Origin: Schmidtea polychroa
Lineage: Eukaryota
Length of the DNA: 64,000 nt
Reading direction: 5' to 3'
Assembly (NCBI GenBank): GCA_044892525.1
Contig: CM097887.1
Span: forward strand, 10,974,001 to 11,038,000
Each line of letters begins with the position of its first letter. Within the stretch, counting starts at the first letter, position 1. The position numbers and the translations under genes were made by a program. Under the pieces are notes generated by a model. It was not told the DNA's origin and searched no databases. It saw only the letters and a list, made by a program, of their open reading frames with translations. This document shows, piece by piece, positions 1-64,000 of this stretch.

Positions 1-2
1 CA

Positions 3-3000
3 TTGGCTATAATACAAGCTATCAAACACTTCCGATATTTACTATGGGGACATGAGATATGCATAACCACGGATCATCAACCATTAGTGTGGTTAGGGCA
101 ACATAAAGAAGCGTCCAGTAGACTGATGCGATGGGCCATGCAATTGCAAGAATACTCCCCATTTATAAAATTCAAAGCGGGAAGAGCAAATGCCAACGCC
201 GATTGTATGTCAAGATTTATTTTCCCAGATTTGGTGGATTCAGAAATGCAACGCATATGCTTGATAGTAGCGGAAGATTTGGATTTCTGTCAATTACGAA
301 AGGACCAACAAGAGGACGCGGAATTAAAACAAATTATCGATTATGTAAAAACCGGAAAGACAGATGTATATGCGAAAGACCAAAAATTAAAAGAACATAT
401 GGATAAACACCGACACCGATATATTATAGAGAAAGATTGGTTGCTGATAATGGATGGGGAAAAACGATTAATGTGTATACCGGAAAACCGACGAAAAGAG
501 TTACTAACGCAATATCACGATGGGAGATTGGGAGGACATATGTCATCGAAAAAGACGTTAGCAAGAATGAAACAGAAATATTTTTGGCCTACGTTAACTG
601 AAGATGTAACCGAATGGGTAAAAAATTGTCTAACTTGTGCAACCAGGAAGAATACTGGATCGAAATGGAAAGCACCTTTAACGCCAATGCCAGTACCAAT
701 AGAACCAATGACAATGATATCCATGGACGTAGTTGGTCCACTACCAGAGTCAGATAAAGGAAACGTTTACATTCTAGTGATCACAGACTTTCTTACGAAA
801 TTCCCAGAAGCATTCGCGATGCCAGACCAAAAAGCTAAAACAATCGCAAAAATTTTGGTAGAAGAGATATGTTGCCGATATGGAACACCAAAACAAATCT
901 TAACCGATCAGGGGACTAATTTTATGAGTGAGATAATGAGCGAAGTAACAAACTACTTCAAAATAGCAAAACTAAGAACATCTCCATACCACCCTCAAAC
1001 CAATGGGATGACGGAAAGATTTAATGGAACACTTATACAAATGTTATCAAACTACGTTGACCGTCACCAACGAGATTGGGACGAATATATAAACCTATGT
1101 CTTATGGCGTACAGAATGTCGATTCACGCATCAACGAAAATGAGCCCATTCAAATTAATGTACGGAAGAGAATGTAATATGCCAATGGACCTGGAATACC
1201 AACCACCGATATCGCAGTATATGGAGATCGATGATTATGTTACGAAATTCAAGGAAAGAATGCAAGAAATTTGGGAAACTGCGGGATTAAATATCAAGTT
1301 CTACCAGGAAAGTTATAAAGATTTACACGATCGAAAGAAAAACGTGAAGCAACATACGTTCCAAACAGGTGATTGGGTAATGATAGAAACCCCGGAATTA
1401 ATTCCAGGAACCACAAAAAAGTTACAACGCAACGGAAAAGGACCATATGAGATCCTATTCGTAGGCGAAACTAATGTAAGAGTGAAATTGGTAAATAACC
1501 CCTTTACCAGACCAATATACGTAAACGTGGCACGATGCAAATCAATTCCGAAAACAGCCACTAGTCAACCAGAAGGCCGTACATTAACCACACGTTCGCA
1601 AACCTACCGAATGAACATGATGCAACAACTCGCAGAACCGATCACTGGACGATTAGGTATCCAACCATCAGAAGCGGAAAAGATTGTAAAAGAGGTAAAA
1701 ATTAGAATACCTGGATGGGCAAAAGATCGATTAGATTTCGAAATATTAGGAGGATTATTGACGATGATCGAGAACTATGCAAATAGAGAAAGGACACACC
1801 CATTATTGCGAGTAGTCAAAAGCCAATGGCCAATATTATTTACAATAACAGATCATTACGGAGACACACCATTACACAAACTCATGAAAGTAGGTAACAA
1901 CGAGCAAATACTAGAAACAATAGAAGCATTTCACGACTGCAAGCGATCAACAGAACAAACAAACAACCAAGGTTACACACCATTAATGATAGCCGCAAAC
2001 AGAGGCAAAACAAAAGACATTATAACCGCATTACTCGATACCGGATCGAAAATAACTACACAAGACCACGAGCGGAAAAACGCTCTACATCATGCTATCG
2101 AAGGGAGAAGTACCGAGGCGTTCACGTCATTGATGGAACTACTATCATATGAGGACAATCGGGAAGTCGGAAACATGTATGATGGATTATTAACAGCGAC
2201 CAAAGAAAAACTGACAACAATTACCGGAATATTAATTACATGGAGAAATCCAATTCAAAACGATTATATGATCAACGTAAACGAAGCGTTCACGAGAGGA
2301 GAGAACACGCTGATGAGAGAAGCTATGAAAGGACATCATTTATTCGAAATCCCGAATCAATTACTAGAACGAGGGATAAAATTCACAAATCACAAAGACG
2401 AACAGTTAACAAAAAAGCGAATCGACACATTCGAAAAATCACTATTCCAATTTACTAACCAAGTACGAAATAAATATTGGGAAACGGTAAGTGTGTTACA
2501 TATGATGGACACAATGAATAACATCCGCGAGAATTACATGGATATTATCCAAATACTTACAGCAGAGGAACGAATCAATAATCCAAACGGAAAGAAAACG
2601 AAAATAAGGTATGAGAAATCCAGGGAATCAAAGTCAACAACGAACCAAACGGTCACAAACAACGTCATCGAAACCAAATCAATGAGTATAGATCAAGAGG
2701 CAATAATACGCAAAGCAAAAGAAGTGTTCTTTGAGGAAATGTTAGAGCTGCCAGACGAAATAATATTGTCCAAAATAATAAAAGCCGTACACACATACGC
2801 AAGAGATCAAACCACGGGTTTAGATATCGGGAAAATCAAAACCTTCTTGCCTCGAGCATTTACGATGGTAACAAAGGATTCCAGAACACCTCTACAACAG
2901 GCAATACTAGCTGCAAAAGAGAATAGAGCAATAACGATCATGAGAATCCTTGGGGAGATGGGCGAGGAAACCAACACGAAAAATGAACAAGGTGAAACCG

Positions 3001-4829
3001 CCATGATGTATGCAGCTATAACGAAAATACACCCAAAAACACTCCACATCCTACATCAATCAGGATCGAAACTAGACGAAAAGTCCAATGAAGGAAATTC
3101 CACCTTGGACTGGGCAACCATACAGCCAAACTTAGAAATGATCAGATTTATTTGCAAAAATGCGACAAAAGAAGAAGTTGAAAATATGTGCAAAAACACA
3201 TCTCAGTTTCAATGGAATACGGTACGGAAAAATCTAGAAGCAATGAAATTATTATTAACCTGGAGAGTACCACAAAATAATAAATATGCGATAAATGTAA
3301 ACGAATTCTACGAAAACGGAGAAAATGCGATGGTAAAGAATACCCTAACTAAGGGGGGGACGCCTAAAATAATTTTAATAGTATTAAATAGAGAAGACCT
3401 AAAATTCACGCAAAATCAGAACGAGCAACAACGAATTGGGAAACATCGTCGTATGCAATTGAGAGAGTTAGTTAAAGAATGGAATAGAAAGAGGCATGCT
3501 GCAACGGGCAGGAAGGAGTTTGAATTCGAAGCAAAATTAGCAAGAAACAGAGTGCTAACAGCATATCGCAGATTATTGAACGATATAAATGTCGAGGACG
3601 ACATTTTAAACGACAGCGGGGGAGATAAACACGATGACAATAACGGAAAAGGCCGAAAGGAGGATAAAGAGAAAAGAGAACCGGAGGAGGGTAAACCGGA
3701 AAACAAGGATTCGGATACGAAAAGAGAGGGAAACAGCCCGGGAACTAAGACCAAAGAGGAGGAAAAATCGAATAATGGAAAACAGAGGGTATGCCTACCT
3801 TTCACTAACAAAGAAATAGAGACAAATATGATATTAATGATAATTATGCTTACCATGATAGAGTTAGTAACAGCTCATGGAGGGACGAGGACGATAAAAG
3901 AAACCAAAGAAGCGGAGAATCAAGATAGCAAAGAGGACGAACTAAAACAAGAAAAGAAAAAGCAAGCACAAGAGCAGCAGTGGGATTTAAAGGAAGAATG
4001 GGACTTAAAGGAAAGGTGCATACTAGGAAGATGCATGTCTAGAGCGTATCAGAAACTAGTACTGATAAATGAGGACACAGAACCAATAACAGAAGTAAGA
4101 ATACAAGAAGCATACCGAAACCGAGACGGGAAAAGAATAACGAACGTTAAAGGAAAAGAGGTACACCTAGGAAAAGGTGGCGAAGTAGTAATAACGCAGC
4201 TCCAACCAAGAAAAGAGCACAAAGTCTGTATTTCAAGATTGGGACCGGGTGAGAGATGCCATCAATATGTGACGCAGCAGCAGCCCCCGAAGGAATATAC
4301 GGTTTGTATCTGGAGAAACGAATCAAAAAGAGAATGCCGACGATACCCGGGGAAAAGAGGAAAGAAAAGGAAAAACCACGACGAAAAGGACGAAGGAGGA
4401 AAGCACAAGAAAACCGGCGAGGAAGCTCAGGACAACTATGTTTCGGAGGAAGAGATGGAAAAAATACAAAAGATGGCAAAGGAGGGTATGAACGAGGAAA
4501 TAGCAAGAATACGGGAAATGATGAAAGGAAATGGCAAAAGAGGGAACGAGAAAAGTACAGAAGCAATATCAACATTAACAAACCAGGAAAAACCAGAGAG
4601 TATAAGCGTGAAGCAGATGATGTGGATCAGTGGGATAATAATAACAGGGGCATTCCTAATCATAACGGGGGGAACAATAAAAATAATTAAGGATAAACGA
4701 CATCGCGGAGAACTAGAGATGACTCGAATCAGAAATTTCCAACATCGAGTGAAACGACCAAGTGATATCAAACAAGAACAGTGGGTGGAGGCCTGGAACG
4801 CTCAGCGCCCTCCAAACTCACGTATATAG
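3..4829 (+). CDS. Partial Pol polyprotein: RNase H C-terminus, integrase (HHCC, DDE, GPY), two ankyrin-repeat modules and a type-I membrane-like tail in one open frame
   Basis: TDHQPL (RNaseH); YHDGRLGGH...CLTC zinc finger; SMDVVGP / LTDQG / TERFNGT catalytic motifs; GPY at ~1440; ankyrin-like GDTPLH, GYTPLMIAA, NALHHA (~1850-2110) and RTPLQQA, GETAMMYAA, GNSTLDWA (~2880-3120); hydrophobic MILMIIMLTMIELVTA (~3828-3875) and MMWISGIIITGAFLIITGGTI (~4617-4680). Confidence 0.9.
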   Translation: MAIIQAIKHFRYLLWGHEICITTDHQPLVWLGQHKEASSRLMRWAMQLQEYSPFIKFKAGRANANADCMSRFIFPDLVDSEMQRICLIVAEDLDFCQLRKDQQEDAELKQIIDYVKTGKTDVYAKDQKLKEHMDKHRHRYIIEKDWLLIMDGEKRLMCIPENRRKELLTQYHDGRLGGHMSSKKTLARMKQKYFWPTLTEDVTEWVKNCLTCATRKNTGSKWKAPLTPMPVPIEPMTMISMDVVGPLPESDKGNVYILVITDFLTKFPEAFAMPDQKAKTIAKILVEEICCRYGTPKQILTDQGTNFMSEIMSEVTNYFKIAKLRTSPYHPQTNGMTERFNGTLIQMLSNYVDRHQRDWDEYINLCLMAYRMSIHASTKMSPFKLMYGRECNMPMDLEYQPPISQYMEIDDYVTKFKERMQEIWETAGLNIKFYQESYKDLHDRKKNVKQHTFQTGDWVMIETPELIPGTTKKLQRNGKGPYEILFVGETNVRVKLVNNPFTRPIYVNVARCKSIPKTATSQPEGRTLTTRSQTYRMNMMQQLAEPITGRLGIQPSEAEKIVKEVKIRIPGWAKDRLDFEILGGLLTMIENYANRERTHPLLRVVKSQWPILFTITDHYGDTPLHKLMKVGNNEQILETIEAFHDCKRSTEQTNNQGYTPLMIAANRGKTKDIITALLDTGSKITTQDHERKNALHHAIEGRSTEAFTSLMELLSYEDNREVGNMYDGLLTATKEKLTTITGILITWRNPIQNDYMINVNEAFTRGENTLMREAMKGHHLFEIPNQLLERGIKFTNHKDEQLTKKRIDTFEKSLFQFTNQVRNKYWETVSVLHMMDTMNNIRENYMDIIQILTAEERINNPNGKKTKIRYEKSRESKSTTNQTVTNNVIETKSMSIDQEAIIRKAKEVFFEEMLELPDEIILSKIIKAVHTYARDQTTGLDIGKIKTFLPRAFTMVTKDSRTPLQQAILAAKENRAITIMRILGEMGEETNTKNEQGETAMMYAAITKIHPKTLHILHQSGSKLDEKSNEGNSTLDWATIQPNLEMIRFICKNATKEEVENMCKNTSQFQWNTVRKNLEAMKLLLTWRVPQNNKYAINVNEFYENGENAMVKNTLTKGGTPKIILIVLNREDLKFTQNQNEQQRIGKHRRMQLRELVKEWNRKRHAATGRKEFEFEAKLARNRVLTAYRRLLNDINVEDDILNDSGGDKHDDNNGKGRKEDKEKREPEEGKPENKDSDTKREGNSPGTKTKEEEKSNNGKQRVCLPFTNKEIETNMILMIIMLTMIELVTAHGGTRTIKETKEAENQDSKEDELKQEKKKQAQEQQWDLKEEWDLKERCILGRCMSRAYQKLVLINEDTEPITEVRIQEAYRNRDGKRITNVKGKEVHLGKGGEVVITQLQPRKEHKVCISRLGPGERCHQYVTQQQPPKEYTVCIWRNESKRECRRYPGKRGKKRKNHDEKDEGGKHKKTGEEAQDNYVSEEEMEKIQKMAKEGMNEEIARIREMMKGNGKRGNEKSTEAISTLTNQEKPESISVKQMMWISGIIITGAFLIITGGTIKIIKDKRHRGELEMTRIRNFQHRVKRPSDIKQEQWVEAWNAQRPPNSRI

Positions 4830-4989
4830 AAAGGAATATGACTGTATATAATTGTAAAAAGTAAGTATATCTTATGTATATAACAGTATTATATCTTTAT
4901 ATAAGCGCGGTATCAATATTATACAATAACGGGAATCATAAAATAAAATTAAATTTACATAAGAGTTGAAAAGAGTATATAAATTAGGA

Positions 4990-5349
4990 ATGGATCAAGG
5001 AAATAACGAAATGAACCACAATACAGTAACTGAAGAATTATGGAAGCAACAATGTGCCGTATTAGCACAATTAGTGTCCAATTTGCAAGAACAAGGACTG
5101 ACGATGCACAGAAACCTGATCGAGAGTATGAACAGAGGATTTAGTTATTTGAAGATAATTGAAGACCAGAGGTTAAAAATCGAACAAATGCAAAGAGAGA
5201 TAGAGAGGATAACCCAATATAGCCGTCGACAGGAAATTGAAATAGACAGAATGATGGAGGAAGCAGAACAGACAGAAATAGAAGACTGGTCGGAATGGCT
5301 AATGAATAGAGAGGAAAGCGGACACGAAGCCGACTCTTCCGAACCCTAA
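4990..5349 (+). CDS. Small coiled-coil protein, cargo ORF1 of element A
   Basis: Open frame 4966..5349; first ATG at 4990; heptad-like E/Q/L/I-rich central part and acidic C-terminus. Confidence 0.6.
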   Translation: MDQGNNEMNHNTVTEELWKQQCAVLAQLVSNLQEQGLTMHRNLIESMNRGFSYLKIIEDQRLKIEQMQREIERITQYSRRQEIEIDRMMEEAEQTEIEDWSEWLMNREESGHEADSSEP

Positions 5350-5434
5350 ACCAAACCTAGCTCAAAATGTAAATAATTGTAAATAAAATATCGAACCTGT
5401 ATCGATAAGAACTATTTGTACATATAATTATAGA

Positions 5435-6823
5435 ATGGATAAACGACAAAGAGAAGAGTTCAGAGAGATTGTCGAGCAAGTCCGAAAATCTACAACGATC
5501 AGAATACACAAACATGTTATGTGCGGAATATGTGAAAAGTTGTTAAAGGAACCTCACCAAACGCAATGTGGATGCAGAGTATGTAAAGAATGTATCAGTG
5601 AAGCAATAAAGAATAGACCACAAAGGTGCCCGGTGTGTAAAGAGACACTAATATCGAGTTTAGAAGACACTAACGAGGATAAAGCCGCAGTGAAAGACAT
5701 GTTAAACACCAACCTGGGATGCAAAAATGCCCCATGCGAATGGAAAGGAGTAATATGGAAGGTAGTACAACATATGGGAGAATGTATGTACAGAATTGGC
5801 CAGTGTGAAAGGTGCCATAAAACCATTCGAGCAAGCGAAGAAAAAGAGCATCAAAGGCAGTGTGAGGAGAGATTGGAAAGATGTGAACACTGTGGAGAAA
5901 TAGATACGTGGATAAATCTCACCCTCAAACATCACAATGTCCAAGAGGAGAGAGTATGTGCGGAGTTCAGTGGGGAATGCCCAAACGGATGTAACCAAGG
6001 GGAAACAATGAAGGTGGCACAGCATCTAAGGGAATGCGAAAAGAAAAGAATGACATGTGTACTAGGTAGATGGGGTTGTCAGAAATTACTACACCGAGGT
6101 GAGTTACCACATCATTTAGTAGAAAATGCTTCAACTCACGCAGAAATGTGGTCGACTGCGTTACAAGAAAGCGAAGAGAAAGTAAAACAAATGGAGATAG
6201 AGATAACATCGTTGAAAGTGTTAGTCAAAGAACTACTAGAAGAAAGGAAAGCGTTCGAAGAAGCCCGAGCAAACATAAAGATGCAAATAAACCGAACAGA
6301 AATTAGTAATAATCAGGCCAAGGAGCTACATCAGAAAATACGGGAAATAAATCTAAATGAGATAACCCCAACAGCACCCTACATATGGAAAATAACGGGA
6401 GTAAAAGAAAGAATACGAAAAGCAAAAACCGGAGAAGAGACAAGAATAACAAGTCCTACATTCCATTCTTGGAAAAATGGGTACAAAATGAAAATGAAGA
6501 TATATCCCAACGGGGACGGAACCGGATTAGATACGCACTTTTCGATTTTCTTTCTGTTATGTAAAGGAGAATACGACGAAATATTAGAATGGCCGTTCCA
6601 GGCAAAAATCGATATTACTCTGATGAGCAACCAAAGTATACATGAGCAAAGCTTCAAAACAACGGGGAATCAAATAGCTTACCAGAGGCCCCTCAACGAA
6701 GAAGGATCAGCAACAGGAGCACCTACGTTCATCTCACAACAAAGAGTAGAAGATATGGCGAGAAATGATACCATATATATCAAGATGACCGTGAGGAAAG
6801 AGGAGAAGGGTAGAACGGAATAA
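5435..6823 (+). CDS. TRAF: Intronless TNF receptor-associated factor (TRAF2/3/5-like): RING, TRAF zinc fingers, coiled coil, MATH domain; cargo ORF2 of element A
   Basis: CGIC-x11-CGCRVC..C-x10-CPVC RING; C-x3-C...H..C zinc fingers (CKNAPCEWKG...HMGEC); MATH motifs YIWKI, SPTF...GYKM...YPNGDGTG..THFSIFF...GEYDEILEWPF..K, DTIYIK. The specific paralog cannot be assigned by eye. Confidence 0.95.
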   Translation: MDKRQREEFREIVEQVRKSTTIRIHKHVMCGICEKLLKEPHQTQCGCRVCKECISEAIKNRPQRCPVCKETLISSLEDTNEDKAAVKDMLNTNLGCKNAPCEWKGVIWKVVQHMGECMYRIGQCERCHKTIRASEEKEHQRQCEERLERCEHCGEIDTWINLTLKHHNVQEERVCAEFSGECPNGCNQGETMKVAQHLRECEKKRMTCVLGRWGCQKLLHRGELPHHLVENASTHAEMWSTALQESEEKVKQMEIEITSLKVLVKELLEERKAFEEARANIKMQINRTEISNNQAKELHQKIREINLNEITPTAPYIWKITGVKERIRKAKTGEETRITSPTFHSWKNGYKMKMKIYPNGDGTGLDTHFSIFFLLCKGEYDEILEWPFQAKIDITLMSNQSIHEQSFKTTGNQIAYQRPLNEEGSATGAPTFISQQRVEDMARNDTIYIKMTVRKEEKGRTE

Positions 6824-7016
6824 CCAATCGAATAATGTTGTATATAATAATCTGTATATATCGGTGTATATAACTAATAAAATATTATATAATAATAGTA
6901 TGAAAACCCTAAATACGAAAACCCAAAAATGATGCGAAAATTTCCCAAGAAACAGTAAATAATGAATAAATTCCTTTTTCATAATAAAAAGATTAATCGA
7001 TGTCTATGATTTAGAG

Positions 7017-8072
7017 ATGACACAAGAGAAAATAACCGAAACTGCGATAGACCCAACCAATGTCAACAAGACACAAATTCCCCGAGAACATAACAAAAAA
7101 TGGAACAAAGTAATGTTCCAACTAACTAATCTCACCCGAAATCACATCGAAGAAACTAGAGAAGATGAGAATAGTCAATACCAATGGTTAATACACAACT
7201 TAAGAGCGGAAGCAGAAGCATGCAAAAGAGCATCAAAATGGGCGTCACTAGAAAATACCCGCCAAGAAGCACACAGACACTACTTAAAGCAGCTAGTGCA
7301 GGAAGCGAGAAAGAGACTTACCGATGAGAACACCAAGCGCGAAGCGGAAAAGCAAATAGAAGACAGGAAAATGATGCACTTAGTGGCAGAAGCGAGAAAA
7401 TGGAAAAGACAAAACAGAGAAATGAAAAAAGAGATGAAAGAATTGCCCATGAGACTCGGATACGAAAGCGAACAAGGTAAATGGGAGGAGAATTTAATAA
7501 TAAAGGAAGAATTGAAAAGGTTGAGAAAGGTCGCCGCCCGAAGCCAAACCTGGCAAACAAAGGCTATGGAGTTTGAGCGACATTTGGCAATGAAGTGCGA
7601 CATAAGAGAGCACGAGAATGCCGCAATGGAAGAGATGATAACCCAACAAGCGGGACGGGTTGTGGAATTAGTAAATCAGGTAGAAGAGATGAAAAGAGAC
7701 CTTAATGGATTACAAGGATCGCTGGAACAAAGAAACATGGTCCTAGCGGGAAAAAACAGAAAATTAGAAAACGAAAGGAAAATGTACACCGAAAATATTA
7801 AAAACTTAGAAATAGAAATTGAAAAATGGAAGGGCGACGAGAAAATCAAAGCCCTAGACAAACAGATAGAGGCGAAAGATGAAGAGACAAGGTATCTCAC
7901 CTATCTGCTCGACGAGGAATTGAATATCACTCGAGCTCTAAGAGACGAAGTTAGTGAATTGAGAGCTCAAATTCCCCAATATTACCTACCATACGACCCT
8001 ATTGCGATACAGTTACATTCCGCGGTCGATAGTGATGAAGGTTATGTAGGCCAGGAGGAAACCTTCGTATGA
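7017..8072 (+). CDS. Long coiled-coil protein, cargo ORF3 of element A
   Basis: 351-aa uninterrupted ORF, E/K/R/L-rich heptad pattern, acidic C-terminal tail; no recognisable family. Confidence 0.7.
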   Translation: MTQEKITETAIDPTNVNKTQIPREHNKKWNKVMFQLTNLTRNHIEETREDENSQYQWLIHNLRAEAEACKRASKWASLENTRQEAHRHYLKQLVQEARKRLTDENTKREAEKQIEDRKMMHLVAEARKWKRQNREMKKEMKELPMRLGYESEQGKWEENLIIKEELKRLRKVAARSQTWQTKAMEFERHLAMKCDIREHENAAMEEMITQQAGRVVELVNQVEEMKRDLNGLQGSLEQRNMVLAGKNRKLENERKMYTENIKNLEIEIEKWKGDEKIKALDKQIEAKDEETRYLTYLLDEELNITRALRDEVSELRAQIPQYYLPYDPIAIQLHSAVDSDEGYVGQEETFV

Positions 8073-8240
8073 GGGTGGATGAAAAGATGAAAAACTAAAA
8101 ACCGGGACGTATATCCCAAACAAAAAAATTAAAGTATTGTAAAAGTATTCAAGGGACTGTAACCCAAACTATTAAATTTTATATCAATGTATACGTATAA
8201 GTCGCACTATAGCGCACCATTAACTGTACATATTATAGAT

Positions 8241-8939
8241 ATGAAAATCGAGGAAATGATAGAAATTATGAGCGACGTAGAAGAGGGAGAGATTGAGGCA
8301 GAAACAACAGAAACACAAACGCTAAAGGCCGAGTTACGGGAAGAGAAATACGAAAACGGGAGATTAATAAACAAATACCTGGAGGACCGGAAAATGATAA
8401 AGGTGTTAAAGAAAGAGTGCGAAGCGTTGGGGGAAATAAAAAGAGAAACGGAAGAGGAAAATGAATGGCTACACGAACAAAGGAAGCGAGGGAAAAACTG
8501 GGAAAAGATAGCGGAAGAGCTATGGAAAGAGAGGGCAAGCTTCAAAGCAAAGGAGGTAATCCAAGACTACTGGAAAACTGAGGCGAAGGAGCGCCAAACA
8601 GCTATAAATAAATTAAAACGACAACTAGAAGAAAACCAACGGGAAAGTAAAGAAATGAGGAAGTGGGTCCGCAAATATAGAGAAATAGAAAGAAAACATC
8701 AACAACAAAATTACCTGCAAGAAAACGAACAAGATCTCCTACAAATCGAGCTAAAAAGAAACCTTGAAAAGAAAAGGGAAGAAATTAGACGCTTGGAAAA
8801 AGAAATTAGACATCTAAAGAGAGAAGCCCGTGAAAAAGACCGACAATTGGAAATGCTGCCCGAGTTAAGACACAGGGTAATTAAAGCAGAGTCCACCTTG
8901 ATGAGAATCGGCGAAAATAATCCAAATCAGAACCATTAA
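8241..8939 (+). CDS. Coiled-coil protein, cargo ORF4 of element A
   Basis: Open frame 8187..8939; ATG at 8241 preferred because it follows a TAG acceptor-like motif and the charged helical composition starts there. Confidence 0.65.
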   Translation: MKIEEMIEIMSDVEEGEIEAETTETQTLKAELREEKYENGRLINKYLEDRKMIKVLKKECEALGEIKRETEEENEWLHEQRKRGKNWEKIAEELWKERASFKAKEVIQDYWKTEAKERQTAINKLKRQLEENQRESKEMRKWVRKYREIERKHQQQNYLQENEQDLLQIELKRNLEKKREEIRRLEKEIRHLKREAREKDRQLEMLPELRHRVIKAESTLMRIGENNPNQNH

Positions 8940-8994
8940 ATTAAGGGTCATTAAAACCAATTGTAAATAAACATAATGAATGTATAATAGTATC

Positions 8995-9636
8995 ATGCGA
9001 GGCGAGATGATGATAACAATGATGGTATTGATGATTCTGATGGAGAGCAAACAAATAGACGCCCAACCGAAAATCGTACGAGATTACCGAAATCAAAATC
9101 AAGAACCTAAACAAGAATCCAGTCAATGCACATACCCGATGACCGTAAAAACCCATATCATCCAAACCATTCAATCAACCCGATCACACATCAACAACAT
9201 CCAAACAATGTGTAAAAAGAATCCCATTTGTAAAATGATAAACAAACAAATCCTCGAACAAATTCAACAATTCGACCAGTTGGAACAACAAATGCAACAA
9301 GAGAATTTTGGAAATCTGGTAGAAAAGCCAAAAATACCTCCCGAAATCAATGACACCCATTATCTCATATATGTGGTGATCGCAGAAACCCTCCTCCTAT
9401 GTCTACCAATATTCATGAAAATTTACGAAGTTCGAAATAGATGTAGAGTCTCGACATCAATAAGAGTAACCTCGAACCAAAATCCTCAAGAAGTGCCCCT
9501 GACAAATCTTAACCGACCTCGAACCCCGAGTAATCAACCAATCCAGCCGAAATCTAATAGTCAGACCTATCTCAACATCAATACCCAAACCAACCAACAG
9601 CCGCCAGCAGAAGCATCAATGGTTAACAGTTCATAA
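8995..9636 (+). CDS. Predicted small type-I membrane protein, cargo ORF5 of element A
   Basis: Signal-like MMITMMVLMILMESKQIDA; Q-rich ectodomain with three Cys; TM-like YLIYVVIAETLLLCLPIFM; P/Q/N/S-rich tail. Confidence 0.6.
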   Translation: MRGEMMITMMVLMILMESKQIDAQPKIVRDYRNQNQEPKQESSQCTYPMTVKTHIIQTIQSTRSHINNIQTMCKKNPICKMINKQILEQIQQFDQLEQQMQQENFGNLVEKPKIPPEINDTHYLIYVVIAETLLLCLPIFMKIYEVRNRCRVSTSIRVTSNQNPQEVPLTNLNRPRTPSNQPIQPKSNSQTYLNINTQTNQQPPAEASMVNSS

Positions 9637-9742
9637 ACTCTAATTCAAACATTTGTGTTATTATATGTGGAAACTTTTATTGTATGTACAAACTATCACC
9701 TTAAGTGATACTTGCTTGGTCTTGCTTTGACCTTGATCTTAC

Positions 9743-9748
9743 AATAAA
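9743..9748 (+). terminator. Candidate polyadenylation signal after the cargo cassette
   Basis: AATAAA about 105 nt after the last stop codon, followed by a GT/T-rich tract (tttttatcattgttgtataattttccgtgttcgtgtt). Confidence 0.45.
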
Positions 9749-10177
9749 ATTTTTATCATTGTTGTATAATTTTCCGTGTTCGTGTTATATTTTTTTTGAA
9801 TGAATGAATTAAGTTAATTATGCAATTGCGGGACGCAATTTTGATGGGTCCCCGAGTGATTTGTTGGGCTGAGTCGAAAATTTAATCGTTGAAAAATAGG
9901 AAAGTAGGGAAGTAGAACATTAAGAAAAATAATAATAAAATAAATAAAATCAGAAATAAAATAGAATAAGATATAAGGAAAATAATAAGTAAGACATAAG
10001 AATTAAAACAAAAAATAAAATTAAGAAAAGATTAAAATAGAACAAGTTGACAAATAAATAAAGAGGAATTCAAGAAATAATAAGGAAATTAAGGAAATAA
10101 ATAGAAAAACATATTAAAAATAAAGAAAATAAGGAAAAAACAACCTAAAAACAAGAAAATTATATTAAATTAATAGA

Positions 10178-10260
10178 AATAAGCGGTACTCAACTCTGAT
10201 TGGTCCGCACAAATAAGAATTTGATATATATACAACTACCAAAAACATTAAATTTACTGT
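10178..10260 (+). promoter_or_regulatory. LTR Pol II promoter: conserved box, inverted CCAAT, TATA, initiator-like site
   Basis: AATAAGCGGTACTCAA (10178-10193) and GATTGGTCCGC are shared with 63452-63481; TATATA at ~10225; Inr-like TTACT at ~10254-10258. Confidence 0.65.
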
Positions 10261-10756
10261 TAACCCCGAGCATTTCATAGGTAAGAAAAATGTTTACTGT
10301 TGTTTACGGTTAACCCCGAGCATTTCATAGACATCTACAACTCACGGAGACTTATTTCAAGGATCAGCAATACAAGTAGAGCAACAGTTAATTCGAAAAA
10401 CTTCACAGCAATTCGAAATCAGTCACAGCAATCGACATTCAACGAACCATCATCAGACTAATTTGGAACGACTAACGTTAATTTTCCGATTCAGCCTAAT
10501 TCCATAGTAAGGGATTTTTATTTATGATATTGTTTTTCGAAGTTAATAGTAAATATGTATATTTAATGAGCAATTAAACTTTTAAATTTAACCAGACTCT
10601 CTTTTCATTTGGTCCTGAATAACGATTTTGATAAAGTAAATAATTTAAATGTTTAAAAGTATTTATTGGTAACAGGTGAACTCTTACATAATTTTTATGG
10701 ATATTTATTTTGAAGTGATAGTTTCATGATTTCTAATATTAACGAGAAACGTGGCG

Positions 10757-10824
10757 TTGAGATACTCCATGTCATGGTGTGAGGTGCCTTCGGGAGCTCA
10801 GCCGGTGGACATGGAGTATTTCAA
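10757..10824 (+). other. Long RNA hairpin capped by a cUUCGg tetraloop inside the LTR
   Basis: TTGAGATACTCCATGTC (10757-10773) pairs with GACATGGAGTATTTCAA (10808-10824), 17 bp with one G-U; inner stem TGAG/CTCA and CC-TTCG-GG. Confidence 0.6.
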
Positions 10825-12734
10825 TCACGCAGCTAGATTGGGCCGAAATGTGAAGGCTTCTTCACGGGTCCAATTGCTGAAGGACTTAAAATCTGTCAGA
10901 GTACCGAAATATAGACCGAAAGGAAACCTTCTGAAAGTTTCGAAAATAGGATATGTGCTTCACAGCGACTGAGGGAGTTCTCATATTAACTCTGTATTGT
11001 CCAGAGTCGTCTTACAAGACATTCATGCCACTTCTGTCTATAAATCCGAACTTACCATGTGGGGGAAAATACCATTAAACATCCATCGCTGGTTTTCTAA
11101 CATATCGAGAAGTTGAAATTGCATTCGGTAGATTTTTGAAAAAGTAACTCTAATTTAGGTCATCTCTTTCAGATGCGACATCCAAATCTTAGCATATGAT
11201 GAGGAATTTACAATAAAGGAAAAGTAAAACATAAAACCACAATAATACTGTATTCAATCACATATATTAACAAAATCTGGTAATACCCATTGAATAATTT
11301 TCATGCTGTTGCGTCGAAATATCCACTACTGAAATATGCTTCATAGAGTCTAGTTGGCTGGTTCGTAGAGATCTCCCATCGTTCAAAAGCATCCAATATT
11401 GAGGAAATTACGAGTCGTAGTAAATAAATCCGACATCATAAGCTCAGATGGGAATCGACACGCGATGTAACATTTGCAGTTCGCTCAGTACGGTTGATAG
11501 TTACAGATAAAATTTCCATCGAATAGGCACCCATACATACAGACATACTGCTAACATAACTATGAGTAGCGTCATCCGGTCAGAAATATGCATGAGAAAC
11601 AGCAGAATCATTCCGAGTGCCTCTCACCGCAGGGAATGCCGCCATGTGTCACCCTCTCTAGGATTCTTAGTGTGTGAGTAGTAATCAGTGGTCCTATTAG
11701 ATAATGCTGACATGAGATGTGACTTCCAGATGACTGACTCTTAAATTTCACTACTGATAAAGGCCATTCGTACCACTAAAAAGATAAGCCAAATAACCAG
11801 TAACCGACTACTAAGATAAGGGACTCTCTAAAGTGCACCCATTAAAGATAATTTTGCTTAAATTAAATATGCTAAATAAAAATCGAAATTGTTGAAGGGG
11901 TATTTTAATTAATAATCGAAAATTCAAACCAAACTTTATAACTAAACCATAGGAAGTTTTACCTAAGTGTTGTAGAGGTTTATCGTAATTCTAATTAGAT
12001 GTTACAAATAATAGTAGTAGCCTTCGAGCCAAATTTAAATTAACTAAAGTATCTACAGGAATTTTTGGGTTATAAAATAGCTAGTAATATTGTAGTTAAA
12101 TTTCTCATATTCCCTGTAAATGACGTATTGTAATAGAAAACTAAATCCGATAACAAATTATTATGTAATTACAATATTTTTACGATGCTATATTTCTACG
12201 ACGATATCACCGTATGGTATGGATAAGGGGTAATCATAAAATAGTGACGTATAGTTTATACGAAATTACGAGTTGTTACTTATTCCGCTACTTGAGGTAA
12301 GGGTGCAAGTTTTTACTAGTTGCATTTGGTCCAAAAACCTTATTTTGCATTAGAATAACAACAAATAATCAGCGAAATTTAAACGAAGTGTAGTATAGTG
12401 TATTTGTAATGAAATAGGGTTATTCGCTCCGGCATGAATAAATCCGTAAATTGCCTTTATGTGCGATAGATAGAAATCCAACTCGAACGCGATAGACGAA
12501 AATTAAAATTTTTACAAATAATTTGCATTCGTCAGGGAAGCAATCAGGGCGTTGGGGAATAATTTTCTGTAAAGGATACGTAAAATATTAGTAATCAAGG
12601 GTGAAGGGAGGGATCCTGTTTCATCGACTCGTCTTGTTTTCTTCCAGCACTAAGTATCCAATAGCGAATAAACCGTATATCTGATCCGAAATTTTTGGAT
12701 ATAGTCATCATAGTTTTCTTCTTTAGCCATCCAT

Positions 12735-13487
12735 ATGTTATCAAACCACAAATCAGCTCTACGTCCCTGCTTCTCCTGCTCAGATAAAAATGCAGTGATT
12801 AAAGATCTTCAAGCCCAGATCGGTCGATATAAACGAAAAATCGACGAACTGGAAGGGACATGGTTTAGTCCCGCTCGGATGAAGGAGATCCAAAAGAAGC
12901 TCGATCGTAGCGAGCATTGCCGGGACGCGCTAATATCTGAGAGCCGTGCCCAAAGAAGTCTAATCAGAGAACAATCCGAGGCACTGCATAAGGTTTACGT
13001 GCAGGCGGCTACAACCCGAAAAATAGTGCAGATTCCCATCCGAGAGGCCGATGACATCTTTCCGCCTCATCACAACCTTTCCTCGAATCCATCTCCACCG
13101 TTCAAGAGACCGTGCCAAGACTGCGTCGAAAACGAATTGTCCCCCAAGCGACCAGATGTTGTCGTCACGGGTACCAGTAAGCCCCCCACTGCTAGTCCAT
13201 CTGTATCAGTCACCCCTCTGCAAGTGGCATCTTCAAGCAAACCCAAGCGCAAACAACTCTCTCGTGCAGAGCGCAAGAAGAGACAGCGCGAACGCGCCAC
13301 TACCAAGCCAAACATCCCATCAATAGAGGACTCAACCAACGGTGGCAACTCTCACGTGTCCATCGACCTAACAACGGGACCCTCAGCACGAATCATATCA
13401 GCCGCTGGCGTAACGTGGGAAGAGAACGCTTCCGAGTTTTTTAACCTCGACGAATTATTCGCCGACGCTGAATGGGAGAAACAATAG
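12735..13487 (+). CDS. 250-aa LTR-internal ORF (coiled coil, basic cluster, acidic-aromatic C-terminus; putative regulatory protein)
   Basis: Uninterrupted ORF in a GC-richer block; polypyrimidine acceptor ttttcttctttag (AG 12725-12726) just before ATG; KPKRKQLSRAERKKRQRER; C-terminal EFFNLDELFADAEWEKQ; AATAAA at 13611. Confidence 0.65.
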   Translation: MLSNHKSALRPCFSCSDKNAVIKDLQAQIGRYKRKIDELEGTWFSPARMKEIQKKLDRSEHCRDALISESRAQRSLIREQSEALHKVYVQAATTRKIVQIPIREADDIFPPHHNLSSNPSPPFKRPCQDCVENELSPKRPDVVVTGTSKPPTASPSVSVTPLQVASSSKPKRKQLSRAERKKRQRERATTKPNIPSIEDSTNGGNSHVSIDLTTGPSARIISAAGVTWEENASEFFNLDELFADAEWEKQ

Positions 13488-15769
13488 AACCCCAGTGGCG
13501 GTCAGGACGAAGAACAAGGATCCGATCTATGTTGATTATGATGTTTTCTCTTCTTTCGACAAACATTAGTAAAGTGTACAGCTGAATCCTTGTGTCATAA
13601 CGTTGAAATTAATAAATCTTGTTGTCTTACACGTTTTCGTTCATGAATAATTAGACTTTAATTAAGTGGGTTGAGTAGAGAACCCGCCAGATCTAGTGAG
13701 AAATTCCCAATTTGTATTCAGCGAATCCTGATAAGTGGTTGTGTAAGGAAAAGGACGTAAGCCCTTCTAACGGCAGTCGTGAATGGGAAGTCGAGGCCTC
13801 AGCAAGGAGTAGTTTTAAGGCAGAAGCTCACCTGCTTGCTGGCGTCTCGCCTGCATAGTGCAGTACCAACGTGAAGTGATTCACGGGCACTATGTTGGAA
13901 GAAAGTTATGTGGGGTTTCACTCCAGGTTGACAAATCGGTGGCACCTTTTATTCGAGATGGACAATCAACCCTTAGACCCGTCAACATGGTAGAGTGGTC
14001 AGCCGAGGTGTAACCCCAACAGTAAGTATAAATAGCCAATTTCTTATACAAAAAGAAAAAGACATATAAAAGCGTGATCATGCACAGAAAGGATAGTAAA
14101 GGAAGGTATAATGGAAGCAGTATTAGAAAATGCCAAAAGCAATTGCGAAAGGAAAGAATTCGGAAATCCGAGAAAAATCAATAAATTGTAAAATCATCGA
14201 AATCGAATTGGGAAAATGGGACAAGTATAGATTAGCTAATGGTTAACAAGATGATGATTAGGGATTTATCAGAAAATGGTTAGGAAGGGTCAAAAAGCAT
14301 TAAAAATGAATAAAAACAGAAAACATTAATTAATTAATTAATTGGCTAATAGAAAACCCGATCTAATGGGAAACCCGAGCCAATGGAGAACCCGAGATAT
14401 GAAGGAAACCCGAGCTGGGTAAACAAGAAGAAAAGTAAACAGAATGAAGATTTGGGCCCATTAGCTTGACACAATGATTAAGTGGAAAAGAGCAAGGAGA
14501 AGATAATGCGTGTAGAAAGGCCGGAAGGGCCATTAATTATCTTTGTTCGTTGGACCATTATGACTGACAGCCGAAACAGATATGTGGAAGCAAATGTCAA
14601 GTGAGAGATTGGCTCGGCAATAACCATTTGTCATCCCGATTTCGAAGAGTATATAAGGAAGGGGAAAATCAGAGCAAATCGGCATTTTGCCTCAGCTAGG
14701 GTTAGAATAAATCAAGCTTAGGAAAAGGTAAAAACGAATTTAGGAGATTAGGGAAAAATAAGATATAGAATAGGAATACGGAAAGGTGAAAAGAATCAAA
14801 TCAAACAGAAAAAGAGGAAAACGTGGGTCAAGAGAATCTAAAGAAATAAAAGGTGAATATTATCTTTTGTCAAAGCATCAACGCCGTGCTGAGAATCGGT
14901 CAAACGTAACTTTGACTATTGATTGTAAACTGTTGAGAAAAGATTGTAAATTTTGTTATTCCAATATACGTTGGGTCGTTATGGTTTTGATTTATAGGAC
15001 ACGAGGATTCAGAAGGTACCGACTTAAATTAACTGAAAACCCAACAAACAAAACAATTATTTTTACATATTACATTTTACATTTTTTACATTTTAAAAGT
15101 GAAAAAACGTGACAGTGACAGACTAATAACGTGGGTAAGAAGAAAACATAAAATCGCTCGCCACGAACAAAAAAATTAAACTTCCGGTGACTTTAAGAAA
15201 AAATAAATCTTGATTATCATTATTTTAGAGAAATCAAATAAAAGTTAAAACTTCAAAAACTGCACTTTTTTCTTGACAGAAAGACAGGAAATTTACATCT
15301 CTCTGGTCATAGTCAACCGGGAGACGGGAGACAAAAGCTGATTTCCAGAGACTCCCAGCCAAAACGGGAAAGTTGGCAAGCCTAGAAAGTACATTTGGTA
15401 AATTTACTCAATTGTTATTTTTCAAAAATTGAACTCGTATATAAAACCTTCAATTCTGAGAAATTGTGATATAAAGAAAATATGTTTTATTATTTGATGG
15501 ATTTTGGTTGATTTAGCCAAAAGGACATGCGGAGTCATGAAATGAAATTCTACCCGAACCTTTGAATATTAACCCAACAATTATAAACTGAAACATTTAA
15601 ATAAATTCCTTTAAAAATTTTCAAGTTCACTTAGCATTTTATATACTAAAAAGTAATCCTTAAAATATAAATTGTTTTAAAATTGTTGAAGTATTGTACA
15701 CCAAGAAACGCTTTTCATTTTTTTCAGTTTTTCATATTAATAAATTATATGTCTCTTAAGTCTTCTAAT

Positions 15770-16468: not shown

Positions 16469-19400
16469 TTATCTGAGTAGAGGCATTCTTTCATTGTTGT
16501 ATATATAATTTGGTCTTTCCTCCTTCTCCTCATCTTCTTCAATGACTTTATAAGTCGTGTGACTTATTTGGTTAGGTCTGAAGCAATACAACCCTACAAG
16601 GGTGGCAACTACAACTACAACGACAACCGCCGTTAGAATGTAGTAAATGTCTGACGAGCTCTTTTCGAAATCTAGTGGGTCGTCTAAAATAAAAATATAA
16701 AATTTTAATTTCAATTATAGAGATTTCATTTTGTTTACAAAACTAACAAATCTTACTTGTGAATAATCTATTTCCAATAATATTGTTATCGTAAGCATAG
16801 CCGAACTTATTTGCCGGAGTAAACAAATTCTTATTTCTGATTAATGGTATGAAAGGCACAATAAAGTCATCACTATGCTGTCCAATTGGTATTGAAAATT
16901 TTTCCGGGTACTAATAATATTTAATTACTATAATTAAATTGGAGTAAATTCCCAAAATGCAAATTTAAAATTATTAACTAGAAAATTTTTAAATAAAATT
17001 ATAAGAAATAAAATTTATAAAAAGAAGTCAAACTTTATATTTTACTTATAATTTGTCAGTACTATATATATCAGCTTTTTTGGCGAATAATATATTTTTT
17101 TATTAAATTAATTAAATAATTTTATCCTTATGAATAATATTTTCATGAATATATATTTATACTTACATATTTATATTAAGATATTAATTTTTTTATTTGT
17201 CTGTCGGAAATATTTGTAATGAGCTTAATGGAGATGATTCTATTAAAGTTGATCTTATTTTTTATATTACAAATTTTACATAAATTTTCTCCTATTTCCT
17301 TTTATTTTATATTTGATTTTAAATTTATTTTTATTTAATTTAGTATTTTATAATATATATTAATAGAAGAGGATATAATAGAGGAGCATGGTGAACCATT
17401 TGTAAGAACGGTGGTGACACCCTCGTGGTATCAAGGGTTATTATTACTGATGTGTTTCTACTAGTCTTGTACCACCAACTGAGCAAAACTGGGATAGACT
17501 GGATAACCATTCTATGGGATCCCATCAAAATGTATTTTTAAAAACTAAGTATTTTTCCTCTCCAAATTTCCAAAAAGAAAAAAAATACTCACTGGTATTG
17601 GCTCCCGGTTAATCACATTATTTATCGAGTATTTTAATATAAATTTCTTTTTTTTAAGTAACAAGAACAACAAACCTACTTTAGATAGTGTATTTCTCAA
17701 AAGCCAAATTTCGAAGATTTTGTCCATAAATGTGTGGTGCAGTAAAAATAATGGATCATTGGGACTCGTAGTGAAATCCATCCAAGTTCCATTAATAAAA
17801 CTATGAACCTCATAAAGCTTAAGTTTAATACGATAAAATCATAATTTTCTTTTACCATATTATGAATCATGACATTTTGATGGGTCAGTCCTTTTCCTAT
17901 GTCTTTCATTCTCACGTCATTTGTATCTGGATCAACTCGATAATATCCTTCGGCGAAATTCCGAAAACTTTTCCTACTAAATGTGCTTGAATTGAAGGGT
18001 TCCGAATCATATTGGTTGACTGAGAATAACTCATCAATTTCGTTTTGATTAGGAAGTCTATCAACTGTCAATGAATATTTTCGCCATAAAAATGGTTCCT
18101 CTTGACCAGGATCGCAAATATGACAATCAAAATCGTAAGATTTCTGAGGGCAAATTGGTTTCCATTTGAAAAATGTGTTGTTAGAATCTTGTTCCTCAGT
18201 GGGAATATCGCCAAGTAAGTCATTTGTACATATATTACAAGTTGTTTGATTTGTCCAGTCCCAATAGGGCAAGGTAAAATTATAATATTCAAATTGTTCG
18301 ACAGCAATACTACTTAATAAGTCTTCAAACATCAGTAAATAATGTCGATGCCACGTAAAAANNNNNNNNNNNNNNNNNNNNNNNNNNNNNNNNNNNNNNN
18401 NNNNNNNNNNNNNNNNNNNNNNNNNNNNNNNNNNNNNNNNNNNNNNNNNNNNNNNNNNNNNNNNNNNNNNNNNNNNNNNNNNNNNNNNNNNNNNNNNNNN
18501 NNNNNNNNNNNNNNNNNNNNNNNNNNNNNNNNNNNNNNNNNNNNNNNNNNNNNNNNNNNNNNNNNNNNNNNNNNNNNNNNNNNNNACGAATAAATCACAA
18601 TCCTCTAAAATTAATATCAGCAACGAATTTATTGATATTATTTCATTAACTCATTAAATTATAAATACTACATCATAATTGTTTCCGTATATAGCATTTG
18701 ACACAGATTATGATGTCCGACTGATGATGAAGAAAATATCCTTTAAATATTTTTCATTTGTTTGGTGTTTTAATTAAAAATGAACCATAAATTTTTTGAT
18801 ATAACAATAATAATAACAATAATAACAATAATAACAATAATAATAATAATAATAATAGTAAAATGAAATAAAAAAAGCTTATAGTTGAAACAAAATTTTC
18901 TGTTCAAAACATAATAACATTTGCGATTCTATTTTTGATGGGTTGTTTCTAGTAATAATAATTTTTAGAAATTGTTAAAAATTATAGTTATTTAATTAGT
19001 TAAAATCTTACTTTATGAGCGAAGTCTAATTTGTTGTCCTTCTCAGTACATGATTCCATTAGATCTTTAGAAATCGTACTCCTGGACGCATAGAAATGCA
19101 AGTAAACCATTGTATCATAAATGGTGGCATTGACCAATTGAATGTTATTCTCATTGACAGGGTCGCAATGAAGATTTGAAGAAGAATTAGTGATCATGAA
19201 ATCCGACAACTGATATTTGCTGATGTTAAGTACTGACAAAAAAATAAAAACATCATATGATCCCATGTTGAGAATATTTTGTCTAATCTTTTTCGGTGAA
19301 GCTATCTCACAGTTTTTCCCTTGCCATCCTGATTTACACTTGTCACAAGCTATCCCATCATAATTTGATATGCAAATGCAAAGGAATTTAAAAAATCTTG

Positions 19401-22341: not shown

Positions 22342-22687
22342 GTTAGAATAATCTCAATTGTGCTACATAGTAATGTTTAATATTTTTATTTAATATAAAA
22401 GTTTTGACAAAGTTTCATGGCAGTGTAAATGTAAATGATCTCCAATTAAATATTTTACCATCTCAGAATGGTAACTAGTGAAATTAATTTTGTAAATTAG
22501 ACGTGTGATCAATTGAACTGTGGAGTTCATTATTTATTTTAATGTTTTTAATTTAATAAGAATTTTTAAAAACACGGTGGAATTATTTAGAATAAAAGTA
22601 ATATATTTTTCATAAACACAAACATTTCAATGGATTTGTCAATGTGGAACAGTTGTGAAATAAGAATATTCTTCATAATCACACATG

Positions 22688-23513
22688 TCCAATACAATCA
22701 CTAATATATCCAATACAATCACCAATATATCCAATACAATCACCAATATATCCAATACAATCACCAATATATCCAATACAATCACCAATATATCCAATAC
22801 AATCACCAATATATCCAATACAATCACTAATATGTCCAATACAATCACTAATATATCAAATACAATCACTAATATATCCAATACAATCACATATATCCAA
22901 TACAATCACTAATATGTCCAATACAATCACTAATATATCAAATACAATCACTAATATATCCAATACAATCACTAATATATCCAATACAATCACTAATATG
23001 TCCAATACAATCACTAATATATCCAATACAATCACCAATATATCCAATACAATCACCAATATATCCAATACAATCACTAATATGTCCAATACAATCACTA
23101 ATATATCCAATACAATCACCAATATATCCAATACAATCACCAATATATCCAATACAATCACCAATATATCCAATACAATCACCAATATATCCAATACAAT
23201 CACCAATATATCCAATACAATCACTAATATGTCCAATACAATCACTAATATATCCAATACAATCACCAATATATCCAATACAATCACCAATATATCCAAT
23301 ACAATCACTAATATGTCCAATACAATCACTAATATATCCAATACAATCACCAATATATCCAATACAATCACCAATATATCCAATACAATCACCAATATAT
23401 CCAATACAATCACCAATATATCCAATACAATCACCAATATATCCAATACAATCACTAATATGTCCAATACAATCACTAATATATCAAATACAATCACTAA
23501 TATATCCAATACA
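22688..23513. repeat. 21-bp minisatellite, ~39 units (TCCAATACAATCACYAATATR)
   Basis: Directly visible tandem array; one 19-bp unit near 22890. Confidence 0.97.
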
Positions 23514-63152: not shown

Positions 63153-64000
63153 TGTTGGGCTGAATTGGAAAAAATGATCGTCGAAAAATAAGATAGATAA
63201 GAGGCGAATAAAATAAAATAAGACCACCAATTTTAGGAATAAATAAATCAAGACATAAAATAAACCATAAATAAGATATAAAAATTAAAACAAAAAATTA
63301 AAATTAAAAAATAAAGTAATAACATAATGAATAAGATACCGGAAAACGCAATAAATAATAAGGAATTTAGGAAATAAATAAAAGATATAATAAAAATAGG
63401 AAAATAAGTAAAATACCCAAAGAAATAGGAAAAAACAAATTAATTTAATAAAATAAGCGGTACTCAATTTTGATTGGTCCGCGTAAATGAAAAATTGGTA
63501 TATAAACCAACGCCAAAATCATAAAAATCAGTGTTAATTTGAAAAAACATTACAGGTAAGGAAATTTTAGCATAAGTATCATCACAGTGTTAATTTGAAA
63601 AAACATTACAGGACCTGACTCTAGGACCAGAAAACCTTCAATAAATTCAGAGAAACTACTCGAGAACCTCATAAAACCGACTACCAGCTTCGACACCAGT
63701 TGACTATTTTGGAAAAGACGAGCCTTATATTTCGATTCAGCCTAACGTGACAGTAAGAGATTGTATTCATTTGTTATTCTTAATTTTTTGAAGTAACAAT
63801 AACTATGTATATTTATTAAATAATTAAAATTTTAATTTACATTTGATCTTTTCTTTTCACTTGATCCCGATTAATAAATTTGATAAATTAACTGGTTTAA
63901 AAATCTAAAGTCATTAATTCGATATGATTTGGCAATTCTTATGATTATTTTTATGAAGTATATTTTTATGCTGTTCAAAGTAACGAGTAACGTGGAGTTG
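63153..64000 (+). repeat. Start of an LTR related to the long LTR of element A (continues beyond the window)
   Basis: TGTTGGGCTGA start; shared AATAAGCGGTACTCAA, GATTGGTCCGC, TATATAAA (63499) and GATTCAGCCTAA blocks; TCAGT initiator at 63528. Confidence 0.85.

Follow-up and report, generated by a model that had tools for sequence, protein, structure and literature searches.

A probably spliced gene within the long terminal repeats of a giant Burro-like Gypsy element of Schmidtea polychroa

The LTR gene and its predicted transcript

We analyzed a stretch of 64,000 nt from Schmidtea polychroa (assembly GCA_044892525.1, contig CM097887.1, positions 10,974,001–11,038,000 of the forward strand), hereafter called the window. 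Window bases 1–14021 are the 3′ part of a Burro-like Ty3/Gypsy element of 30,454 bp (contig 10957568–10988021), which ends in a 3′ long terminal repeat (LTR) of 4,160 bp (9862..14021, plus strand, as are all features of the element given below). The 5′ LTR, 26 kb upstream, shows 0 differences from it over 4,160 positions. The LTR ends are of the TG...CA type, the element is flanked by the 4-bp target-site duplication (TSD) GTAA (14022..14025), and a motif like a primer-binding site (PBS), which we take to resemble the proline-tRNA type, is found 7 nt past the 5′ LTR. Wholly inside the LTR, and thus carried by both LTRs of the element, lies a gene of 250 amino acids (aa) at 12735..13487. A previous reading of this DNA, made by a model from the sequence only, had proposed here a spliced viral-type transactivator; the splice acceptor, the 250-aa open reading frame (ORF), the Arg/Lys cluster and the AATAAA at 13611 with its T/G-rich tract that it described are all present.

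The LTR protein combines a CxxC motif and a helical hairpin (residues 11–113), a P/S/T linker, a basic helix (169–190) and an acidic tail (226–250). AlphaFold2, run with 14 aligned copies, gave a mean pLDDT of 60. It placed two long helices at 13–40 and 46–99 (mostly >90), where the sequence-only reading had an N-terminal coiled coil, and a basic helix at 177–189; the remainder of the protein was disordered. The basic stretch (residues ∼169–190) holds 11 K/R among 22 residues, and 6–7 R with 3–5 K are found there in 14/14 aligned proteins. The tail holds 8 D/E and 7 F/W/Y/L. The terminal acidic-aromatic motif noticed earlier was recovered in the closer types of this LTR, to which the full FFNLDELFADAEW motif is confined, but not in the distant types with 36–39% protein identity. 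Indeed, 7/14 aligned proteins have a strongly acidic-aromatic tail, while that of the 7 distant ones is weaker, with just a D-hydrophobic-D/E-E/D core retained; in the 36–39% types the last 25 residues have a charge of −3 to −4 and 1–2 aromatics.

No match to the LTR protein was found in Pfam, among PDB sequences or in metagenome contigs, nor among the 50% representatives or 90% clusters at near and shorter lengths (longer proteins lay outside this search). Foldseek returned nothing at E ≤ 0.001 against the PDB and viral folds. The best score in an Atlas language-model feature search was 0.84, which is a lead only. The resemblance to Tat or Tas that had been proposed found no sequence or fold link in the Pfam, PDB and viral-fold searches. 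Within the searches run, the LTR protein is a family with no relative found outside this genome. A frameshifted, still more distant relative at L100:309–1000 (+) is 38% identical over the N-terminal half; its basic motif is rich in K, and its acidic tail has W as the last residue.

The signals expected of a transcription unit are arranged around the gene. The promoter (10183..10232) comprises a group-specific motif at 10183, an inverted CCAAT box at 10199 and a TATA box at 10225. The CCAAT and TATA boxes were found in 75/81 LTRs, and each of the two protein groups has its own version of the motif immediately before the CCAAT box. We predict an exon 1 (10256..10280), whose first base would be both the transcription start site and the start of the repeat (R) region, a 50-nt mini-intron (intron 1, 10281..10330) whose 3′ half copies exon 1, a non-coding, ATG-free exon 2 (10331..10506), and an intron 2 (10507..12726) that runs from a GTAAG donor to a pyrimidine-rich acceptor and whose middle is unalignable between LTR types. 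The acceptor, TTTTCTTCTTTAG, ends at 12726, 8 nt before the ATG at 12735, which begins at the 9th exon base. The poly(A) signal AATAAA (13611..13616) is followed by T/G-rich sequence, with the R end placed at ∼13635, and the conserved LTR end, the putative U5 (13750..14021), holds a donor-like GTAAG at 13757 that is kept in 79/81 LTRs.

These signals are well conserved. A YAG lies 5–10 nt ahead of the ATG in 55/55 scored LTRs (5/60 were without anchor), and 0–10 nt ahead of it in 12/12 across all types despite unrelated upstream DNA. The predicted leader (exons 1 and 2) holds 1 ATG against 27 expected over 11 sequence classes, as compared to 63 in the same length of intron 2; 69/81 LTRs were scored, and kinship among the classes makes the P value look stronger than it is. 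The poly(A) signal is found at the same place as AATAAA in 73 of 79 LTRs and as AATATA in 5, with none in 1. Thus the CCAAT and TATA boxes, two donors, ATG-free leader, acceptor and poly(A) signal recur across divergent LTR types. They suggest that the gene is likely expressed as a twice-spliced mRNA of ∼1.1 kb from the repeat's own promoter. It is highly probable that transcription would start at ∼10256 and that the default RNA would be spliced to the acceptor at 12726 and end at ∼13635, making the LTR protein the first ("early") product. The conserved DNA signals agree with the sequence-only reading in that each LTR would be a self-contained spliced unit from ∼10256 to ∼13635, while the transactivator role is a prediction only. 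Four contig runs that are RNA only by guess gave scattered, partial cover and did not bridge any of the predicted splice sites; this comparison, which began ∼360 nt into the LTR, is evidence neither way.

Intron 1, which like the intron-2 hairpin and a Rev/Rex-like role had escaped the sequence-only reading, carries a further signature. Its last 22–33 nt, out of ∼50 nt, repeat exon 1 exactly in 62/81 LTRs; the remaining 19 comprise 6 without a promoter match, 2 with imperfect repeats and 11 apparently without intron 1. In 59/62 LTRs the match begins at TATA+27 to +31. The repeated sequence is wholly different between types, and the two copies match within each LTR, including single-base and run-length variants. 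A G precedes the second copy in 15/36 distinct junctions versus ∼19% expected (binomial P about 0.002, the junctions not being independent). This pattern could arise if reverse transcriptase (RT) copied a capped 5′ end already spliced of intron 1 and the product was then transferred to the unspliced 3′ copy, where exon 1 would overwrite the tail of intron 1. As the recopying starts at TATA+27 to +31, the packaged RNA would begin at ∼10256, R would be ∼3.4 kb and the gene would lie within R. We thus consider it probable that the genomic RNA starts at ∼10256, keeps intron 2 and its hairpin (described below) and reads through the 5′ poly(A) site. An R of this size would be more than 10 times as long as retroviral R regions, given as 15–250 nt in passages of PMC12789967. 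Two other accounts were ranked lower: an ORF in U3 with a genomic start near 13630, as in mouse mammary tumor virus (MMTV), does not account for exon-1 recopying from TATA+30, and a repeat produced by tandem duplication or by gene conversion would leave the TATA+30 boundary unexplained. The 11/75 LTRs apparently without the mini-intron were not counted as proof of splicing, because a deletion between the repeats gives the same product.

The donor of intron 2 was seen in 246 LTRs and the spliced junction in 0, using a junction probe that covers the commoner types and only part of the exon-3 starts. Intron 2 contains a predicted double-hairpin RNA structure (10750..10879; z −6.5), for which Rfam gave no meaningful match. 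When the structure derived from the window sequence was imposed on 18 of 30 distinct variants, which are related and were picked towards divergence, 97.5% of cells paired and 10/52 pairs were changed on both sides. In the distant group, a long stem of another kind is found ∼1.2 kb into the LTR. The double hairpin could equally be a packaging signal or a response element. We also observed that the first LTR bases (9862–9880) are complementary to a motif before donor 2 (∼10485–10500), to the upper hairpin (∼10792–10805) and to the PBS region, with which the LTR start may possibly pair in long-range RNA contacts.

Copies and selection across the genome

To see how the gene fares in other copies we used samples with different biases. 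A protein search of the genome, which is biased towards intact copies, gave 148 ORFs without a stop among the best 150 of 7,013 candidates scored. The second sample was blind to the ORF: from 179 exact matches to the LTR end (100 listed), one LTR each was taken for the first 60 loci. Here the ORF was present in 60/60 and intact in 53/60; 7 were broken, in one case just 3 codons short of the end, and an eighth that the script had flagged is intact with a short in-frame deletion. The ORF is therefore not disrupted in most copies, and its position is fixed in both LTRs across all types, so the objection that it belongs to a nested insertion fails. Among solo LTRs with a 4-bp TSD it is intact in 17/19 (two are duplicates of each other). 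One solo LTR of another type starts in the window (63153..64000, plus strand), and its continuation carries an intact 249-aa ORF past the window end (L033:2852–3601) with 80% identity to the window ORF. This solo LTR lies inside a 144-bp tandem repeat (62780–63211) and has a 4-bp TSD with one mismatch.

The third sample consisted of the 3′ ends of 20 elements that were found by their RT and are absent from the ORF lists. A homologue was detected in 19/20, 12 at 62–67% and 7 at 36–39% identity; 18 are full-length and one is truncated, and one tile has no LTR. In the 36–39% group the LTR DNA can hardly be aligned to the window LTR, yet the protein persists. Of 20 pairs, 9 gave a finite dS, with dN/dS ratios of 0.06–0.15; in the remaining 11 the synonymous sites are saturated while the protein is kept. 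Protein length stays at 247–255 aa across types with non-aligning flanks. Constraint is seen in the N-terminal half and the basic motif, as well as in the tail of the closer types, and is much lower in the linker (114–168). In these closer types the tail is as constrained as the N-terminal core, with a proportion of changed nonsynonymous sites (pN) of 0.01–0.15 as compared to 0.04–0.44 in the linker. We conclude that the LTR gene is under purifying selection.

Changes private to single copies show where this selection acts. Solo LTRs gave a ratio of nonsynonymous to synonymous change (pN/pS) of 0.82 (18 copies; 10 silent changes, 27 not) and paired LTRs one of 0.49 (35 copies). This difference indicates that selection works by way of the element's replication; nothing points to the host selecting on solo LTRs, and selection by the host on a solo-LTR product was accordingly not supported. 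The suggestion that solo LTRs serve as intact units stands as far as the ORF goes, but their private changes are near-neutral, and solo LTRs appear to keep the ORF mostly through youth while copies decay near-neutrally.

The history of the LTRs differs from that of the pol gene. In four closer types the RT silent sites are 1–24% different from those of the window element, as compared to 19–89% in the LTR ORFs, and one pair combines an RT pS of 0.04 with an LTR-ORF pS of 0.89. Near-identical RTs with diverged LTR ORFs imply that old LTR modules were exchanged among near-identical pol backbones. The 36–39% group, whose RT silent sites are 70–76% different, is a separate old subfamily. We further noted a stretch (12858–13090) over which the window and L033 types are nearly identical at silent sites, within an ORF that is otherwise silent-diverged; this could reflect either recent recombination or an overlapping signal. 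Neither this near-invariant stretch nor the LTR end was predicted to fold better than shuffled sequences (z about −1).

The element body and its relation to known systems

The gag-env-pol frame reaches into the window with its 3′ end, which encodes RNase H, integrase and ankyrin; it is followed, upstream of the 3′ LTR, by four accessory ORFs (frame end and ORFs together 3..9636), namely a TRAF-like ORF (5435–6823) and three ORFs without an assigned domain (7017–8072, 8187–8939 and 8980–9636). The complete frame is open over 4,732 codons and encodes, in order, gag, CCHC knuckles, a mononegavirus-type fusion protein, protease, RT, RNase H, integrase and ankyrin repeats, with a RING ORF upstream of it. 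No Pfam match to the cargo domains BIR and BCL2 was found in the scanned ORFs (the scan left out the first ∼165 codons of the long frame). An AG lies 1–2 nt ahead of the start codon in the RING, TRAF and two other accessory ORFs (5435, 7017, ∼8241 and L031:7066), a pattern that suggests splicing of the accessory ORFs from a common leader. Downstream of the last accessory ORF (at 9743), and also of the RING ORF, we noted a poly(A)-like signal with a T-rich tail. By eye, a short ORF of ∼120 codons (4990–5350) apparently lies between the pol stop and the TRAF-like ORF, and a 74–75-bp tandem array with GTAAG in each unit is found between the RING ORF and gag (L031:∼8190–8650). The bases before the 3′ LTR (9840–9861) show no polypurine tract, and TGATT is present at both inner LTR borders (also L031:6728–6752).

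The label Burro-like rests on the family description. Burro/GYPSM1 are giant Gypsy-like LTR retrotransposons of planarians (PMC6431247). As in the passages of that source on the family, the present element exceeds 30 kb, has multi-kb LTRs, a frame of ∼4,700 aa with a fusion glycoprotein between gag and pol, and ankyrin, RING and MATH/TRAF cargo. In contrast to the same description, TRAF is here a separate ORF downstream of pol and BIR and BCL2 were undetected in the scanned ORFs. The text of PMC6431247, its figure aside, makes no mention of a gene, an intron or a long R in the LTR. Nor were these found for the Burro LTR in the literature searched, the primary Burro papers (Grohme 2018; Lee 2026, Dev Cell) being outside its scope, and no Burro or LTR-gene text was found in the passages searched of PMC13524379; the primary papers or their supplements may already describe LTR genes. 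The element family was thus known already, as were LTR-borne ORFs and spliced regulators in retroviruses. MMTV sag and HIV nef are coding sequences inside the LTR that are reached by splicing, as described in passages of PMC12789967; unlike these host-directed genes in U3, the present ORF is placed in R, downstream of the LTR promoter, so that a solo LTR would be a complete gene.

Several other features were noted in the window. Another Gypsy element, smaller and with LTRs of ∼470 bp and a broken pol, lies at 45113–52275. As the DNA to the right of the giant element (14077–14415) is 75% like the LTR of this smaller element, the giant element was probably inserted into a related LTR. A 21-bp tandem array at 22515–23560 reads as an open repeat frame of 215 codons, and an exon-like ORF at 17697–18332 (minus strand), which we take to resemble tyrosinase, is probably part of a host gene. 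Elsewhere in the genome, five elements retrieved through the fusion-protein family proved to be smaller, unrelated env-Gypsy elements with no LTR homology, and L067–L086 represent a large family of ∼14-kb Gypsy elements with ∼0.6–1-kb LTRs, in which the fusion protein likewise lies in frame, after gag and before pol.

Possible roles of the LTR protein

As the default first product of the LTR promoter, the LTR protein points to a regulator of the element. Our leading reading, held with less than even confidence, is that it would enter the nucleus and activate transcription of the element. We ranked activation first because the protein has a basic helix, a constrained acidic tail and no export signal, and because a group-specific motif lies beside the CCAAT box; the mixture of K and R in the basic motif was also counted in its favor, as were the K-rich version and W-terminated acidic tail of the frameshifted relative at L100. 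Acidic-aromatic tails act as activation domains. Tentatively, the helical N-terminal half would be the interaction core, the basic helix would serve nuclear import or contact DNA, and the acidic tail would recruit the transcription machinery in a positive loop resembling that of foamy-virus Tas, with the intron-2 hairpin serving packaging by Gag. The likeness to Tas would consist of a basic segment and a C-terminal acidic-hydrophobic segment, strong in 7/14 aligned proteins and weak in the 7 distant ones; no homology between Tas and the LTR protein was found. Passages of PMC7828637 place Tas mainly between env and the LTR, under an internal promoter, whereas here the gene and its promoter lie in the LTR of a member of the Metaviridae. 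In foamy viruses the 5′ poly(A) site is skipped via U1 binding at an LTR donor and different folding of the two ends (PMC3694450), and the present LTR has conserved donors on both sides of its poly(A) signal.

Several observations weigh against activation. In the searches above, no transactivator or DNA-binding family matched the protein in sequence or fold. The tail is much less acidic and aromatic in the 36–39% types, where the charge of the last 39 residues is −2 to −4 as compared to −6 to −8, and a host factor may be what binds the motif upstream of the CCAAT box. Among the conserved cis elements the strongest is an RNA hairpin in the intron, which would suit an RNA-binding regulator. Finally, deeply different ORF types on near-identical pol backbones share the same hairpin variant, so no strict lock-and-key relation between protein and hairpin is seen.

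The hairpin raises a second possibility, which we regard as somewhat unlikely, namely a regulator like Rev or Rex, made from the fully spliced RNA, that would bind it via the basic helix and so bring about an early-to-late switch, by promoting intron-2 retention, reading past the 5′ poly(A) site or exporting the unspliced ∼30-kb RNA. Such a role would fit a covarying hairpin confined to unspliced RNA, 246 LTRs that keep donor 2 with the tested spliced junction in none of them, and a distant group that differs in both basic motif and hairpin. In addition, several accessory ORFs with AG just before the start imply that the element needs splicing control. Passages of PMC12789967 describe comparable pairs, HTLV Rex/RexRE, Rev/RRE of HIV and Rem/RmRE of MMTV, in which a protein with a basic helix is made from a doubly spliced mRNA (predicted here) and structured RNA lies in the unspliced RNA or the LTR, as RexRE does. 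However, the LTR protein differs from these in having no conserved export signal, a mixed K/R motif and 250 aa with a large coiled-coil core. Searched with regular expressions, the leucine-rich export pattern was absent from the window protein and from 4/6 other close-type proteins, and none was conserved across the 14; export-type patterns in the distant group fall within the coiled coil. Also, the basic motif tolerates K, and packaging by Gag accounts for the hairpin and the retained intron without the LTR protein. A parallel with Tat/TAR meets other differences: there is no conserved 5′ structure, exon 1 is wholly different between types, and the conserved hairpin lies ∼500 nt downstream, in intron 2.

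We think it rather improbable that the protein is a host-directed accessory factor, an anti-silencing or cell-state modulator acting on host proteins that would be made first and from every copy by virtue of its LTR position. The several signalling-type cargo domains of the element (RING, TRAF and ankyrin) are in keeping with this, as is the far greater divergence of the LTR types than of pol, which is expected in an arms race. Burro1 is under PIWI control according to passages of PMC8532177, and its IAP was reported, second-hand, to protect stem cells (PMC13465017). However, no host-like domain was detected in the LTR protein, the selection is purifying rather than diversifying, and solo copies decay near-neutrally. 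Very unlikely, in our judgment, is a particle-associated nucleic-acid chaperone that would help RT to copy and transfer an unusually long strong-stop DNA (∼3.8 kb). The great length of the putative R speaks for it, and a basic patch with an acidic-aromatic tail also fits single-strand binding proteins, but Gag already has CCHC knuckles and the AlphaFold2 model is without a nucleic-acid-binding fold. A passenger ORF, captured or nested without function or unexpressed, would fit the lack of a homologue outside this genome in the searches run, but we hardly credit it given a dN/dS of about 0.1 with the codon pattern to match, a held length and conserved splice and poly(A) signals.

Our boldest reading, which we put forward at a little under even confidence, is that a Ty3/Gypsy element independently reached the organization of a complex retrovirus, of which trans-acting regulators are a mark. 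A master regulator would lie in a 3.4-kb R, each LTR would be an autonomous early gene of a new protein family, and the protein would switch the LTR from the short mRNA to full-length RNA. Each round of replication would rewrite the 5′ intron from spliced RNA, and old LTR alleles would pass between near-identical pol backbones. With this element, two general questions become testable in a single small system: what decides between polyadenylation and read-through when the 5′ and 3′ LTRs are identical, and by what means an intron within an LTR survives reverse transcription. If this reading is true, hundreds of LTRs in this genome, solos included, could each make a nuclear protein, and an entire spliced gene within an R of ∼3.4 kb in a Gypsy element would mean that the logic of complex retroviruses arose separately in retrotransposons.

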